A stretch of DNA of 64,000 bases from Nitrosopumilus sp. (GTDB lineage Archaea; Thermoproteota; Nitrososphaeria; Nitrososphaerales; Nitrosopumilaceae), in NCBI GenBank assembly GCA_965205675.1, contig OZ242186.1, positions 1,760,001-1,824,000 on the forward strand. Reading direction: 5' to 3'. Below, in pieces: positions 12,986 through 46,524 of this stretch (position 1 is its first letter; each line of letters begins with the position of its first letter). The position numbers were made by a program, and so were the translations under genes. Under the pieces are notes generated by a model. That model had not been told where the DNA came from and searched no databases. It worked only from the letters and a program-made list of their open reading frames with translations.

Positions 12986-13058
12986 AGAAATTTTTTCTTT
13001 TTTCTTATTTTTCTATTTCACCTCAACAGATTTTAATCGCTACTATCCAATATTTTTT

Positions 13059-13142
13059 GCAGAGGTCGCCTAGCTCGGTAGGGCGCGGGCCTTGAGAGCC
13101 TGTGTGCGCAAGCATACGGGGGTTCAAATCCCTCTCTCTGCG
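13059..13142 (+). tRNA. tRNA-Ser(TGA)
   Basis: Cloverleaf, anticodon loop CTTGAGA, long variable arm, TTCAAAT T-loop. Confidence 0.95.
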
Positions 13143-13282
13143 TTTTCAATTTCCATTTTATTGAAATCTATTCTGAGAATTGCAGCTTAGAATTATTATT
13201 CGATAGGACTTGAAATAATAGAAAAATTCAATTCTGGTTATGAATAGATGATCATACCAGTTATTGCCATAGTTGTAATTAT

Positions 13283-13490
13283 CCATGTGAATTGTTTTTA
13301 TACATTTCCTCTCTTTCTATACATCAGGGCATGGCTTTCGCTAGAGAATGGTTTCAATCAAAAGATGGCAGACATGTATCCATACGAGACTATTCTCTCA
13401 ATGCTATCTTCATCCTAGTTAGGATTGTTCGCAGTTATTAGACGAGGCCTTGTCCCTCAATAATTACAACGCGACTTGCAGTCCTAACTA
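13283..13490 (-). ncRNA. Predicted bridge/seek RNA of the IS110 element
   Basis: Nested stems enclose GTTGTAATTAT and TCTAATAACT, exact matches to the two target flanks; second stem-loop contains donor-junction ATGGATA. Confidence 0.85.
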
Positions 13491-14477
13491 TAATTTTGTA
13501 CAAATTCTCTCCTCTCCTTTAACATCCAATAAATCACCCTCAGGATCTTTGATGCACCAGCTACTGCAGCTTTGGATGATCCTCTTTTCTTTTTAATGCG
13601 ATTGTAAAATTTTGTAATGTCACTATCCTTGGCATGAATTGCATGAGTGTGTATGCATTCTGTTAGAACCCATCTCAATGTCATGCTTCCCCTTTTTGTT
13701 ATTCTGCCATGGTGTATTGTATCTGCAGAGTTTCTAACTGATGGTACAACTCCTGCATATGCACACAGTTTGTGAGAATCATTGAATCTCTCAATATCTG
13801 CAATCTCTGATGCAATGACAAGCGAAGAATAATGCCCAATTCCCGGAATCGAGTTTATCAAAATTGCATCAGGATTAACTTTTACAGCAGCATACACTTT
13901 GGAATTAATCTCTGCAATCTGTAAATTAAGGTGGCTGATTTGTTGCAAGAATCCGTCTATTCTGTAATCTCCTAGTGCCTTGAGTCTTCTGTTGTATGTT
14001 TCAGTGAATGTAACTCCTGGAATCCTGATTCCTTCCTGTAACAATATTCCATGAACTGAATTCTTGACAGATGTTCTCCATTGGATTAGTTTTTTCCTAT
14101 ATCTTACAAGCTGTCTTTGTTGTACAATCTTTTTGTCTGGAACATAACATGTGGCAATGTATCCTCCTCGTAAAAGATCTGCCAATATCTTGGCATCAAT
14201 CTTGTCTGTTTTCTTTTTTGATGTAGCAATTGCCTTTGTCAAATATGGGTTTGAGAGTGTGACGTTTTTGTATCCCAAAGTATCTGTGAGAAATCGATAC
14301 GTGTCATACCAGACTGATGAGGATTCCATTACAATATTTGCAGAAATTGGTATTTTTGCAAAATGCTTCCTGATAGATTCATGAGTGTTATCCACTTTGT
14401 CATTTTGTAATACTTTGCCTGCATCATCCATTTATTACTTGAAGAAACTTCTTGTGCAGGTCAATGCCCACAAACAT
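13484..14477 (-). pseudogene. IS110 DEDD recombinase/transposase, frameshifted near codon 15
   Basis: MFVGIDLHKKFLQV is out of frame with MDDAG...; KTDKIDA, IPGIG, YAGVVPSVRNSA, ITKRG motifs. Confidence 0.9.
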
Positions 14478-14632
14478 GCCTTTCTTTGGTTTCTTCCTAA
14501 TCTGTTTGTTTGTAATCTTTTTTGGAGCCGAGTATTTACGAACCTTGGAACTAGATTCATTTTTTATGCTATCTGATTTCCTTGCTTTCTTATTCACATA
14601 TAGTTATTAGAATTATTAGTATATCATTTATT

Positions 14633-15845
14633 TGAGACTTGGGCATAATTAATTCTGATTTTTGAGTTATCTCTCAAATTATTCAAATGGAAAAAGCTAA
14701 AGATCAGCACATCGTGATATCATTGAAATGATAAAAGATGTACAAATCCCTAGGCAACATAAGGTATCAATCATTTCTTATTGGCGTGTTACATTTGGTT
14801 CATCATGCAGTCTGATATTTGTAGCGGCGATAGGTATCAATCATTTCTTATTGGCGTGTTACATTTGGTAGGGACATTATCTTTGTATGAAGATGTACTC
14901 AGAGTCGGTAGACCATACGTGTACTCCACCATTCAGATGATGCAATTGTGCATCGCAGGTCTTGGATGAGAATATCCAGCAACAATACACTATACTATTT
15001 TCTTTTGATTAAATCAACCAATCACAAATTACTCAAGGTTTGTAAATTACAGTAAATCCCAAACCGTAGAACAATTGACAGGCGATTTGAATTTCTACCA
15101 ATTAGTGACATGATTAGTACAATGGGCAACAAATTCATCTCAGATGGATTGGTGGAAAATATTTTAGTACTAGTTGATAGTTCCATGCTAAAAGCTGCTG
15201 AGTCCAGTATAGCAAAAATCAGACATTACACAAAATCGTTTGCCAATTGCAGGAATTGATACTGGTGCCAAAATAGGGTTTCTCCAAATACAAGGGTTGG
15301 ATATTTGGATACAAACTACACATAAGTTGTTCGGCTGGTAAATTGATTGTTCCTTTATCTGCTGATGTCTCAACTGCAAATGTTCATGACAATAAGATGT
15401 ATTGTGAAATAATCAAATCACTTGCAGGGCTGATAAGTAATGTCTTGTGTGATCCAGCATATGATGATGGTTCACTGTACCAGTTTAGCAGCAAGAAAAA
15501 TCTGAGATTGATTACTTCAGTTAAGATATACCCATCAACTCCTCCAGAGAGAATCAAACTTGCAGATTTTTATCATTCTGTGATTGGTCAAGAGTTGTAT
15601 TTGCAAAGAAAAATTTCAATTGAGCCCCTATTTCAAATATTCAAAGATGCATTTGATATCAGAACAGTCCCTGTGAAAGGATCAAATAACGTAGAATCAT
15701 TTGTGCTGATCTGCGTGCTTGTTTATCAGTTGGCAGTGTATTACAATTGTATTACTGGAGTAGAGAATCCAAGAATTGTCAAAAGAATGCTTTGTTGTTG
15801 AAATAATTTAAAACTATTTTTGTAAATCACTATGCCCAAATCTCA
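14633..15845 (+). mobile_element. DDE_Tnp_1-type IS (IS982/IS1182-like, family unresolved), degraded
   Basis: TIR TGAGACTTGGGCAT/ATGCCCAAATCTCA, ~5-6 bp TTTAT duplication, GYKLH, TANVHD, DPAYD, SIEPLF motifs. Confidence 0.85.
14762..14869. repeat. 38-bp perfect direct repeat pair separated by 32 bp
   Basis: AGGTATCAATCATTTCTTATTGGCGTGTTACATTTGGT at 14762-14799 and 14832-14869. Confidence 0.95.
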
Positions 15846-26619: not shown

Positions 26620-27465
26620 CTATCCATATGATTCGTATTTGACTTCGTAACTTCCATCTTCACGTTTATCATGTTCAGTGATGAAACCTTTAGGATTTAA
26701 AAAATCCATTACACCATCTATGGTTCCTTGCCAGCCACAAACATAGAATATTGTATTTTTTTTAGTTATCTTATCCCCAATTAATTCCTCTAGTGGCGAA
26801 AGTCCGTTATCTCTTGGTCTTAGAAATGTCTCAACTCTTCCAACTTGACCTGCCCATGATCTGTTAAACCATTCTTGTGGTCTACTGATTGCAGCTCGAT
26901 ATTTAAAATTCCATTCCTCCTTGCCTTTTGCCACGCTTTCATCTTCAAGACCTGTTAGCAAATCCTTGTAACTTAACTCATCAACATAACTTGCTCCATG
27001 CAAAACTACAATTTCACGTTTATCTTCAGTATCATGAAGGTGTTGTGCAAAGCTCACAAATGGTGCAAGTCCTGTACCTCCACCAATGCAAACAATTCGT
27101 CGGTTATCTTTCTCACCATTAGGTAATTCGTCATTAATTAGCAAAGCCCGACCTGTAGGTTTTAGCCAAAGAATTTCATCCCCTTCTTTTATATTAAATA
27201 ACTGAGTGGTTAATCTACCTGGAAGTGGTTTTCTAACCCATCTGATAACTAGTTCAATGTAATCTCTATTTTCTGGGTGAGATGCAATTGAATATGCACG
27301 TCTAACAATTTTTCCATTTTCTACTGGATTTGGTAACCCTAATGTAATGAATTGTCCTGCTTTGTATTCTGGAACTGGTCCATCTTTTGGAACTAGTCTA
27401 ATAATTACAAGATCTTCTTTTAGTAATTGAACATAAGTGACCGTTGCTTTGTTATCTACGACCAT
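26620..27465 (-). CDS. Ferredoxin-NADP(+) reductase
   Basis: RAYSIAS, GTGLAPF, YVCG motifs. Confidence 0.9.
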   Translation of the reverse strand: MVVDNKATVTYVQLLKEDLVIIRLVPKDGPVPEYKAGQFITLGLPNPVENGKIVRRAYSIASHPENRDYIELVIRWVRKPLPGRLTTQLFNIKEGDEILWLKPTGRALLINDELPNGEKDNRRIVCIGGGTGLAPFVSFAQHLHDTEDKREIVVLHGASYVDELSYKDLLTGLEDESVAKGKEEWNFKYRAAISRPQEWFNRSWAGQVGRVETFLRPRDNGLSPLEELIGDKITKKNTIFYVCGWQGTIDGVMDFLNPKGFITEHDKREDGSYEVKYESYG

Positions 27466-39156: not shown

Positions 39157-39157
39157 T

Positions 39158-40229
39158 AGACCTCTTGCGTAATTAGACATATTTTACCATATTACACAAA
39201 TTCCTTCACAGCAAGATCCAAAGCTAAGAACAACTTAACACATTTCATGTTAACATACAAGCAACTCTCAAAAAAGCCAAAATCCCTTCTCTCTTTTACT
39301 GGAGTGACTAGGCAACAGTTTGATGTGATTCTAAAGGATGTCAGAAAGAATCACCGTATAGAAGAAAAGAAGAGACTATCCAAAGCAAAGAGAAAAAGAA
39401 GTATCGGAGCTGGGCGAAAGTTTGATTTGAGTCTTGAAGACCAGCTTGTAATGTTGTTTGTTTACTATCGGATGTACCTGACATGTGAATTGACAGGATA
39501 TCTGTTTGGATTAGACCAGAGCAACGTCTACAGAAACATCAGATATTTAGAGCCTGCAGTAAGAAAAACAGTTCCTATTCCTGCAAAACTATACTCTGAT
39601 TCTAAAAAAATAAATGATGTACAGCAACTCCAACTGTTCTTTCCTGAATTAATTGCAATGACTGATGGGACAGAGCAGCAAATCCCAAGACCCCAGAACA
39701 AAAAGAAAAGATCCACTATTCAGGCAAAAAGAAAAAACACACAATAAAAAACCAAACACCGTAAACCAGAAAGGTGAGATAATCCACAAACCCCCACATT
39801 CTCCAGGTAACATGATTATGCCATACTGAAAATCAGACATCCAGAACTGCCCGAAGATGTGATGATATTTTATGACCTTGGGTATTTGGGAGTGGAAAAA
39901 GATTTCCCAGAACAGACAAGCATTCTACCATACAAGAAAAAGAAAGGAAAAAAACTGACCATACATCAAAAGGAATGGAACAAGATACAGTCAAGAATCC
40001 GAATAAAAGTAGAACATATTATCTCTCAAATCAAAAAGTTTAGGATTAATTCTGAGACATTTAGGAATAGATTGTGCAGGTATGATGCAATAAGTGACAT
40101 CGTATGTGGAATTGTGAATTTCAAGACAAGATGGAAGCAAGAGCTTGTTGTGATTCCATAAGATTAGAAATTATTTGAAATTAAATTCAATGAAAGATAA
40201 GATTTTGTTTGTAATTACGCAAGAGGTCT
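39158..40229 (+). mobile_element. IS5-family (DDE_Tnp_4/ISL2-like) element, copy 1, frameshifted
   Basis: TIR AGACCTCTTGCGTAATTA, AAT flanks; DGTEQ, DLGYLG, RIKVEH motifs. Confidence 0.92.
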
Positions 40230-44601: not shown

Positions 44602-45459
44602 GCTTTGAAATCATTTCTGATTCTATTGCATTGCAATCATTTTATTGTACAGACAAACTTTCATTTTCAATTCATGAATCATGTTTTCTCTCTTGTGCGA
44701 TGTCACATGCTCTCCAAACATTCTTTTGAATACAGAGAATGCTCCCTCTACAATCCATCTATCCCCATAGCTTACGCTGAGCTTCCATAGATCCAAGTTA
44801 TACAATTGTGCCAAAACAGACTTTCTCCGAGGATAACAATCAGTTACAACTGATGAGTTTTTTCTTGTTTTAATTGCAGGTAGAATATCATTATCATAAT
44901 ACAGATATGAAAAATTATCCTTTGTATCATATGCACCATCAGCCAAAGTTTTAGTGACATTGCCAAACTGTTTTGATTGCTCAACTAGCGATATGAAATG
45001 TTTTGAATCATGTGACTTGTCATCTGTAATATCAATCCCTGTGATCTGTTTAGATTTCACATCTACTGCCCAACATGAATTTTAAGAAATCCTCTTCTCT
45101 TCTGCCATTTCTGTCTCATCCACTCACCTCTGTCTGCAACCTTGATTCCAGTTGAGTCTATTGCAATGACAATGTCTTTTCCTAGTTTTGGATTCATCTT
45201 GATGTCAAGTTTGTTGACACGTTTCCAAATGGCAGAATATGTGGGAGTCTTTGTTTTGGATTGGAGGTGTGATTTTATCAGACCTTCTGTTTGTCTGAAT
45301 GGAAGATGCAAATAGAGATGACAGTATCCTAGTGCCTCCATGAAGGATTCGGGATAGACAAATCGATGACCTTCCTTTTTGTGATTCATCTCTTTTAGTT
45401 CCATACTCCATGATTCCATTGCGTCAAAGGACAACATGATTTCTCCACGTCTAACTAGT
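44602..45459 (-). mobile_element. IS5-family (IS903-like) element, truncated and frameshifted
   Basis: LPFRQTEG, IDSTGIKV..RGEW, ADGAYD, RWIVE motifs. Confidence 0.88.
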
Positions 45460-46524
45460 AGACCTCTTGCGTAATTAGACATATTTTACCATATTACACA
45501 AATTCATTCACAACAAGATCCAAAGCTAAGAACAACCTAACACATTTCATGTTAACATACAAGCAACTCTCAAAAAAGCCAAGATAATTTCTCTCTTTTA
45601 CTGGAGTGGCCAGGCAGCACTTTGATGTGATTCTAAAGGATGTCAGAAAGAATCACCGTATAGAAGAAAAGAAGAGACTATCCAAAGCAAAGAGAAAAAG
45701 AAGTATCGGAGCTGGGCGAAAGTTTGATTTGAGTCTTGAAGACCAGCTTGTAATGTTGTTTGTTTACTATCGGATGTACCTGACATGTGAATTGACAGGA
45801 TATCTGTTGGATTAGACCAGAGCAACGTCTACAGAAACATCAGATTTAGAGCCTGCAGTAAGAAAAACAGTTCCTATTCCTTCAAAACTATACTCTGATT
45901 CCAAAAAAATGATGTACAGCAACTGCAACTGTTCTTTCCTGAATTAATTGCAATGACTGATGGTACTGAACAACCAATCCCAAGACCCCAGAACAAAAAG
46001 AAAAGAAAGACTCACTATTCAGGCAAAAAAAACACACAATAAAAAACCAAATCACCATAAACCAGAAAGGTGAGATAATCCACAAACCCCCACATTCTCC
46101 AGGTAACATGATTATGCGATACTGAAAATCAGACATCCAGAACTGCCCGAAGATGTGATGATATTTTATGACCTTGGGCATTTGGGAGTGGAAAAAGATT
46201 TTCCAGAACAGACAAGCATTCTACCATACAAGAAAAAGAAAGGAAAAAACTGACCATACATCAAAAGGAATGGAACAAGATACAGTCAAGAATCCGAATA
46301 AAAGTAGAACATATTATCTCTCAAATCAAAAAGTTTAGGATTAATTCTGAGACATTTAGGAATAGATTGTGCAGGTATGATGCAATAAGTGACATCGTAT
46401 GTGGAATTGTGAATTTCAAGACAAGATGGAAGCAAGAGCTTGTTGTGATTCCATAAGATTAGAAATTATTTGAAATTAAATTCAATGAAAGATAAGATTT
46501 TGTTTGTAATTACGCAAGAGGTCT
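45460..46524 (+). mobile_element. IS5 DDE_Tnp_4-type element, copy 2, multiple indels
   Basis: Near-identical to 39158-40229; flanks AGT/AAT. Confidence 0.92.

Follow-up and report, generated by a model that had tools for sequence, protein, structure and literature searches.

A predicted RNA-guided insertion sequence of IS1111-type layout in the ammonia-oxidising archaeon Nitrosopumilus

Two sets of described systems come closest to the element reported here. The first comprises the IS1111 insertion sequences (ISs) with seekRNAs, ISEc11, ISPa11 and ISKpn4 (Siddiquee et al. 2024, PMC11187229). As described there, 4 bp are common to both junctions of ISEc11 and the target is 12 bp long; the sub-terminal inverted repeats of IS1111 elements are given as usually 11–13 bp in that paper and as 7–17 bp in PMC11208160, and the terminal extensions are asymmetric, 7 or 6 bp on the left and 3 bp on the right, with no bases added on insertion. 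The second set comprises the bridge recombinases of IS621 and ISCro4 (Durrant et al. 2024, PMC11208160; Hiraizumi et al. 2024, PMC11208158; PDB 8wt6 and 9t56); IS621 has a target of about 14 bp, and its handshake guides are described in PMC11208158. ISPpu9 of Pseudomonas putida, as described in PMC12288879, belongs to the IS110 family, has a gene for a small RNA downstream of its transposase, is located in repeated sequences and forms modular circular intermediates; its host is bacterial. We analysed a 64,000-nt stretch of Nitrosopumilus sp., referred to in the following as the window (assembly GCA_965205675.1, contig OZ242186.1, positions 1,760,001–1,824,000 of the forward strand), which carries an insertion sequence that we named ISa. 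The copy in the window is very probably a non-autonomous IS110-superfamily IS with an IS1111-type layout, RNA-guided into a target of 13–15 bp.

The host genome, referred to as G000, is a single 2.01-Mb contig with ten full copies of ISa at 99–100% identity, plus fragments. An earlier note on this DNA had placed the element at 13283–14601 and stated that its deletion restored the target. The strings quoted in that note were all confirmed by direct reading: the left flank plus core, GTTGTAATTAT, lies at 13272–13282, CCATGTG opens the element at 13283, and CACATAT closes it at 14601, followed by AGTTATTAGA at 14602–14611. The proposed boundary on that side had to be moved. When the flanks were compared by BLAST with the host genome, unoccupied paralogous sites were returned, which were then read directly. 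Three of these empty sites read TGTAATTAT/TGGA and lack AGTTAT, whereas the occupied paralogues read TGTAATTAT-ISa-AGTTAT/TGGA. As read, the empty sites are TTTTATGTAATTAT/TGGAAAAAAC, CTCAATTGTAATTAT/TGGATTTGTG and TTCAATTGTAATTAT/TGGATTTATG. Since AGTTAT is missing from all three, it is the element's own left-end extension, and the inserted unit is 1325 bp long (13283–14607), counting a single copy of the 4-bp TTAT common to both junctions. Six of the 21 bases that had been taken for target thus belong to the element.

In element orientation, the whole left end reads ATAA-CTAT-ATGTGAAT and the whole right end ATTCACAT-GG-ATAA, with a perfect sub-terminal inverted repeat of 8 bp (ATGTGAAT/ATTCACAT). 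If ATAA is assigned to the left, following the convention used for ISEc11, the extensions are 8 bp (ATAACTAT) on the left and 2 bp (GG) on the right. ISa resembles the IS1111 seekRNA elements in its sub-terminal inverted repeats and in the 4 bp at both junctions without true duplication, although its repeat is shorter than the usual 11–13 bp. The extensions of ISa are asymmetric and have the same total of 10, but measure 8 + 2 rather than 7 + 3 bp. The crossover most likely falls inside the common TTAT/ATAA, the point of strand exchange within it being our inference; in IS621, by comparison, the core is CT. From the corrected boundaries, the predicted circle junction is ...TTCACATGG-ATAA-CTATATGTGAAT..., which can also be given as ...CACATGG-ATAA-CTATATGTG..., instead of the CACATGG-AT-ATGTG that the earlier boundaries yield.

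All ten copies have the same target half on one side: 3' of each, in element orientation, stands ATAA-TTA(C/T)A. On the 5' side, the five solo copies (c1–c5) have TCTA, TCCA (three copies) or ATGA, followed by ATAACTAT, so that TC(C/T)A is found in 4/5. The ISa target would then have the 13-bp consensus TC(Y)A-ATAA-TTA(Y)A, and at the window copy two further bases match, giving 15 bp. The loop regions described below are identical in all ten copies, and identical loops were not found at unrelated sites, since 10/10 copies sit at sites containing TTA(C/T)A; the condition that the earlier note had named as refuting thus speaks for guidance. Immediately downstream of an ISa target of the c2/c5 type, an open reading frame (ORF) of 285 codons is found. 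Copy c5 is adjoined by a repeat of at least 122 bp (G000:1109403–1109524) that recurs in about 30 other places at 88–100% identity, including window 39157–39278 and 45459–45580. A different repeat, of about 75 bp, lies at window 14623–14705, 22 bp past the element, and has more than 20 genome copies at 84–93% identity.

The non-coding region downstream of the recombinase gene (13283–13490) contains two predicted stem-loops. The first of these has the features expected of a target-binding loop. On the minus strand, GTTGTAATTAT and TCTAATAACT flank a TGAGG...CCTCG hairpin, which is nested within TCGC/GCGA, itself within TAGTTAGGA/TCCTAACTA; the two flanking segments are the 5' and 3' arms of an internal loop (Table 1). 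The 3' arm pairs with TCTA-ATAA, and its last two bases (CU) match the CT of the element. These two bases would be handshake-like, resembling the handshake guides of IS621, in which bases beside the crossover likewise match the other partner. As a control for chance, we counted the genomic 21-mers outside IS copies for which both the 11-nt and the 10-nt half occur anywhere in the element, and found 47 among 1,980,044. The match between the loop and the flanks is far beyond chance. Both arms read the same 4 nt of the target, from which a true target of about 13–15 bp follows; the earlier figure of 21 bp is too long because it double-counts this overlap and takes in element bases. As in the IS1111 seekRNA elements, the top-strand match lies 5' of the bottom-strand match and the two overlap on a target of about 12–15 bp. 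Relative to IS621 and ISCro4, which also read both strands with an overlap at the crossover and whose target is similar in length (about 14 bp), the arm order is reversed, and the predicted RNA is encoded at the 3' end of the element, not at the 5' end.

The three nested stems were recovered by comparison. RNAalifold, applied to 15 diverse relatives, predicted the same helices, nearly invariant and 99–100% paired. Taken over the helices of both stem-loops, pairing in the 15 relatives was 97–100%, with 8 compensatory cells, and neither the percentage paired nor the covariation score was reached in any of 500 shuffles.

We then compared the loop arms with the flanks of related elements, scanning one genome per species. 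The scan returned 77 related loci, of which 75 have titles naming Nitrosopumilus, Nitrosopumilaceae, Cenarchaeum or Nitrososphaerota and two come from a record titled "MAG: bacterium"; together with the IS1111-like layout, this bears out the earlier description of an archaeal IS110/IS1111-type element. Among the relatives the non-coding scaffold is conserved and the arms differ. A regular expression for the scaffold matched 48/77 loci, and 33 of these had recognisable ends; with the five solo ISa copies they made 38 records, comprising 37 unique sites and 19 arm pairs. The longest exact run between the 5' arm and its cognate 3' flank averaged 7.89, against 4.05 for 1126 non-cognate pairings, and the first five nucleotides of the 3' arm matched the flank at 3.08/5 positions for cognate and 1.65/5 for non-cognate pairs. 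When arm pairs were permuted among families, the observed value was reached in 0/5000 permutations for each arm. Relatives with other loops thus occupy other sites, which match those loops, a natural reprogramming that is also seen among the IS1111 seekRNA elements. The covariation of loop arms with flanks that the earlier note had proposed as a check is therefore present.

A second lineage, in a genome designated G031, also yielded an empty site. A pattern search for an empty site in G031 returned one unrelated match, and the empty site came instead from a search with the upstream repeat: one of 22 copies of the target repeat is empty and reads TTTGCTAA/TTCATACG, with occupied junctions TTTGCTAA-CTATATGTG and CACATAGAT(T)GA-TTCATAC, the same layout as in ISa. 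We had considered a 1-nt flexibility in the register of the 5' arm, based on the flank classes ATTGATTC and ATGATTC, and rejected it because the G031 empty site puts the variable T inside the right end of the element. In G031, loci L045–L058 and L131 have GA at the right junction and AA at both the empty site and the left junction, and some copies have one T more than others in the extension at the right end. In this lineage the crossover bases of donor and target may not be the same.

These comparisons bear on the reading of the earlier note, a 1319-bp element with a 21-bp target, GTTGTAATT-AT-AGTTATTAGA, a 2-bp AT core and a specificity longer than that of IS621. At the window copy the arms do match the immediate flanks at 11/11 and 10/10 positions, and AT stands at both ends of the 1319-bp stretch. 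An element of this form, however, predicts the empty site TGTAATTATAGTTATT, and the three empty paralogous sites lack its AGTTAT. The 21-bp target has no match in the window and none in the genome within 4 mismatches, against ten unoccupied sites fitting the 13-bp consensus in the host genome (2.7 expected). We had thought of target saturation as the reason for the absent 21-bp sites, but dropped the idea when the flank BLAST returned empty sites that were 6 bp shorter. Moreover, the first GTT of the 5' arm and the terminal TAACT of the 3' arm are near-invariant across the 19 arm pairs with their different targets, as would fit a role in structure or at the element's own end, rather than in reading the target, and only 1/10 ISa copies has a flank that matches the GT of GTT. 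With a 4-nt overlap between the arms and two nucleotides paired with the element's own left end, the 21-bp version is very unlikely, and we retain the 13–15-bp target. One of the ten unoccupied consensus sites, CTTGTAATTATTAGA, lies in the window (27397–27409, minus strand) within a 283-codon ORF and has 14/15 target bases.

The second stem-loop is the putative donor-binding loop. The earlier note had drawn it around a stem AGAGAAT/ATTCTCT, the two parts of which pair in no more than 84% and 54% of cells among the 15 relatives; a local hairpin that competes for the same bases is better supported (97% paired, 7 compensatory cells), and the AGAGAAT/ATTCTCT stem was rejected. By direct reading, ATGGATA lies at 13377–13383, and the 3' arm, U-AUGGAUA-CA, matches the right end plus the common bases (ATGG-ATA) over 7 nt. 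Its AU(G/A)G agrees with the right end CACAT(G/A)G in 86/88 copies from all sources. The AUAG or AUGG of the 5' arm is complementary to the CTAT or CCAT of the left extension, AACTAT or AACCAT, and the two are concordant in 60/68 copies. Of the eight discordant cases, six have a 5' arm of ISa type (TAGCAT) together with a left extension reading AACCAT, as in chimeric elements that have a gene like that of a sibling element, ISb (see below), and an ISa-like non-coding region. A target loop and a donor loop that each read two strands follow the logic of the bridge RNA as set out in PMC11208160, and IS621 and ISCro4 have the same pair of internal loops. The bridge/seek RNA anatomy proposed for the 3' non-coding region is thus consistent with both loops, the arms of which covary with flanks and ends.

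The recombinase gene of the window copy is broken at about 14431–14435, where it is 2 nt shorter than the intact allele, and ends with a stop codon at 13484–13486. The frameshift that had been noted is real, dividing the gene into ORFs of 57 and 315 aa, but repairing it is moot, since two natural copies are intact (G000 615809–617129 and 1108054–1109374), each with an uninterrupted frame of 372 codons. The shorter allele is present in 8/10 ISa copies and occurs in both ISa sequence subgroups. By its broken frame the window copy is non-autonomous and would depend for its movement on recombinase supplied by the two intact copies. Contigs of four sequencing runs carried variants with 2 nt added near 14431–14435, consistent with the intact allele, and position 13441, which belongs to the 3' arm of the target loop, showed a G>A variant; these contigs were fragmented over the repeat, and no joints were seen in them.

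The protein of an intact copy matched PF01548 (DEDD_Tnp_IS110, 3.9e-25), PF02371 (Transposase_20, 1.8e-21) and the NCBIfam model NF033542, "IS110 family RNA-guided transposase", at 228.8 bits (cutoff 140). It aligned with ISCro4 (9t56, E 4.7e-12) and IS621 (8wt6, E 2.9e-9), although the similarity is weak (49 and 40 bits). The GID, MES and KTDKIDA motifs and the serine of RNSA align with D11, D102, D105 and S241 of IS621 (our count, which is the chain numbering minus 2; the catalytic residues are named in PMC11208158), so that the catalytic D, E, D, D and Ser are conserved. By these matches the protein is an IS110-family DEDD/Ser recombinase. ISa shares with the IS1111 seekRNA elements the DEDD recombinase and a long non-coding region downstream of the gene, and by this layout it would be IS1111-like. 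The nearest plasmid-borne relatives outside Nitrosopumilaceae are haloarchaeal genes annotated as "IS110 family transposase", at 33–37% identity.

The anatomy of the sequence was observed directly, as were its copies, the unoccupied sites and the covariation of arms with flanks and with ends. From what experiments have established for the family, we infer that the region is transcribed, that the RNA binds the recombinase and that the circle recombines within ATAA. In the mechanism that we propose, the transcript of a region of about 135 nt just downstream of the recombinase gene would fold into the two stem-loops. The first loop would bind the target, the 5' arm pairing with ATAA-TTACAAC, the 3' arm with TCTA-ATAA and the last two bases with the element's own left end. 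The second would bind the circle junction of the donor, AUGGAUA with the right end and common bases, and AUAG with CTAT of the left extension. The DEDD/Ser recombinase together with this RNA would then recombine the circular form into TC(Y)A-ATAA-TTA(Y)A, with the crossover inside ATAA and no true duplication. Because the GTG start lies inside the left inverted repeat, the integrated element would be without an internal promoter. In the circle junction, TATAAAAA would be located about 30 nt upstream of the GTG, which would suit an archaeal promoter and a leaderless mRNA; it is a candidate junction promoter. Junction promoters are known for bacterial members of the family.

Table 1. Predicted and observed features of ISa in the window (positions count from the first nucleotide of the 64,000-nt stretch; motifs of the element's ends are in element orientation where noted)
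Feature	Position	Strand	Basis
Mobile unit, 1325 bp	13283..14607	(-)	10 copies at 99–100% identity; three empty paralogous sites without AGTTAT
TTAT (= ATAA in element orientation), at both junctions	13279..13282; second copy 14604–14607	(.)	empty versus occupied sites
Left-end extension ATAA-CTAT (element orientation), outside the inverted repeat	14600..14607	(-)	empty sites; sibling elements have AACCAT there
Left sub-terminal inverted repeat ATGTGAAT (element orientation); contains the recombinase GTG start	14592..14599	(.)	direct reading
Right sub-terminal inverted repeat ATTCACAT (element orientation), then GG, then the common ATAA	13285..13292	(.)	direct reading
N-terminal recombinase fragment, 57 aa, with the first catalytic Asp (VGIDLHK)	14424..14597	(-)	ORF list, alignment
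C-terminal recombinase fragment, 315 aa: remaining DEDD domain and Transposase_20 with the Ser equivalent to IS621 S241	13484..14431	(-)	alignment
Predicted target-binding stem-loop, three nested helices round an internal loop	13416..13490	(-)	helices 99–100% paired in 15 relatives
Predicted 5' arm GUUGUAAUUAU, complementary to the top strand of ATAA + TTACAAC	13460..13470	(-)	copies, arm comparison, empty sites
Predicted 3' arm UCUAAUAACU: first 4 nt, left target; AUAA, common bases; CU, element's own left end	13433..13442	(-)	
Predicted donor-binding stem-loop, hairpin with compensatory changes and a conserved U-run at its end	13360..13415	(-)	
Predicted donor-loop arms: 5' AAGAUAGCAU; 3' UAUGGAUACA	13401–13410; 13375–13384	(-)	
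TATAAAAA, near the right end, candidate archaeal junction promoter	13295..13302	(-)	A/T-rich block at the same place in relatives

Several observations weigh against an RNA-guided insertion of this kind. Folded as a single sequence, the non-coding region has an unremarkable minimum energy (z = −0.46), and 64/200 shuffles fold at least as well; the energy by itself is uninformative. In a search of Rfam at E up to 1, no match fell in the element; the tRNA and two chance-level matches elsewhere were the only hits. The sequencing runs listed for the organism include none recorded as RNA. As most helix positions are invariant, few of them (3 pairs, 8 cells) contribute to the structural covariation. 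In the donor loop, the 5' arm match is only 4–5 nt long, and its two-state covariation, with 8/68 copies discordant, probably reflects few independent changes. Recognition of the left target is also short (4 nt), and copy c4 matches at 1/4 positions. In the covariation set, 44/77 loci were dropped before counting (29 without the scaffold by regular expression, 15 with unrecognised ends), and since the remainder come mostly from about six genomes of one genus, the sites are not fully independent. Finally, the ten consensus target sites that remain empty include one 14/15 match in the window, which leaves the present-day activity of ISa unproven.

Some of these points would also be expected if the flank-like segments acted as DNA, either as a captured copy of the target or as a protein-binding site that synapses with the target, with the stems being incidental. 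This would account for the unremarkable fold energy and would agree with the lack of an RNA run among those listed. It does not explain why the two segments have the sense of opposite strands, in the order and with the overlap found in seekRNAs, or why they lie in an internal loop framed by helices that are kept in 15 relatives with compensatory changes. The protein family has, in addition, been shown experimentally to need such an RNA. We consider a role as DNA highly improbable.

A second possibility is that all copies are dead relics, the copies and their common flanks having been spread by segmental duplication or recombination instead of targeted insertion. The gene is frameshifted in 8/10 copies, c6 and c7 have identical 40-bp flanks, c2, c5 and c10 have flank motifs in common, and ten good target sites are empty, all of which would be consistent with this scenario. 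On the other hand, two copies are intact and 99–100% identical to the others, the flanks of c1, c4 and c9 are unique, c3 and c8 lie within diverged paralogues that also occur empty, and the same target halves stand beside every copy. Spread as dead relics is thus unlikely, if less so than the two alternatives above, and it bears on present activity only, not on the identity of the element. RNA-guided insertion into a 13–15-bp target remains the reading that we prefer.

The host genome has two sibling families, ISb and ISc. There are four copies of ISc, with 58% protein identity, and its arms match its own flanks. ISb is an element of about 1326 bp. Its 5' arm is the complement of ATGTGAA, which belongs to the left inverted repeat of ISa and ISc, and the 3' arm matches AACTATA together with AAC(C) of ISb itself. 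All nine ISb right ends abut the left inverted repeat ATGTGAAT of a sibling (ISa in eight cases, ISc in one), which explains the presence of ISb on that side of 5/10 ISa copies. Five tandem ISb–ISa pairs, in which ISb lies in the left terminus of ISa, were found at G000:925845–930163 (L007), 440473–444219, 996453–999100, 1501181–1503828 and 1664872–1667519; the five tandem copies carry their own ISa subtype. None of the eight full ISb copies (e.g., 953081–954406) has an intact recombinase gene. The gene is in two frames in 8/8: in seven copies a common +1 shift after ...LLRGG would be required to join them, and in the eighth an insertion interrupts the gene. In another genome, a relative (L075) gave a single tblastn match over residues 1–369 with no break.

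The left ends of ISb (16 in G000, e.g., at 566152, 63654 and 1407699) have an AACCAT hexamer in one, two or three tandem copies, preceded by ...AACT-AT or ...AACC-AT. Chimeric elements, at L013 (G000:754384–755681), L063, L069, L073, L091 and L095, join an ISb-like gene and AACCAT left end to an ISa-like non-coding region, which suggests module exchange between siblings.

Insertion into the ends of other mobile elements has precedent in the IS1111 family, since IS4321 and IS5075 insert into the terminal repeats of Tn21-type transposons. ISb likewise targets the end of a mobile element, but that end is the left terminus of its own sibling ISs, and its eight full copies are without an intact recombinase gene. 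Tentatively, and with rather less than even confidence, we suggest that the genome houses a small ecosystem of three sibling RNA-guided ISs, in which ISb is a non-autonomous hyperparasite with a loop programmed against the left terminus of its siblings (AACTATA/TGTGAAT). If so, each insertion of ISb would leave behind a lasting equivalent of a circle junction, in which about 30 nt would separate the TATA-like box at the right end of ISb from the leaderless GTG start of the sibling downstream, and the ISb–ISa pair would spread as a composite unit.

Next to the window copy of ISa, a tRNA-Ser (UGA) lies at 13058–13143. Homology to nine genomes of the same genus stops just past this tRNA, and no orthologous empty site was found in these relatives, the best-match homology ending at query positions 709–751 of 846. 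The region with the element thus looks strain-specific, and the claim of a restored host gene is weak: the ORF restored by the correct deletion is 27 aa long and hydrophobic (29 aa with the deletion proposed earlier). At window 15343–15801 (+), a 152-aa ORF matches the C-terminal part of a DDE_Tnp_1 domain (E 8.2e-11) and is a fragment of another insertion sequence.

In the literature that we searched, we found no description of a bridge or seek RNA in Nitrosopumilaceae; the supplementary tables of the 2024 papers, which lay outside the search, may list such elements. Archaeal IS110 recombinases are already catalogued, 662 of them in the preprint 10.1101/2024.06.21.599552. As RNA-guided IS110/IS1111 recombination has been established since 2024, ISa adds no new principle. 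Its anatomy marks it, in all likelihood, as a genuine RNA-guided element of IS110/IS1111 type in an archaeon that oxidises ammonia, and its mechanism would be one that is already known; it differs from the IS1111 seekRNA elements in its archaeal (Nitrosopumilaceae) host. It also shows that target length is overestimated when only the flanks are read, since part of the guide matches the end of the element itself. ISa is of value as a clean data set provided by nature: in an archaeal lineage that is mesophilic and AT-rich, a single conserved scaffold carries at least 19 guide pairs that have been reprogrammed naturally, the boundaries are fixed by empty sites, and two of the recombinase genes are intact.

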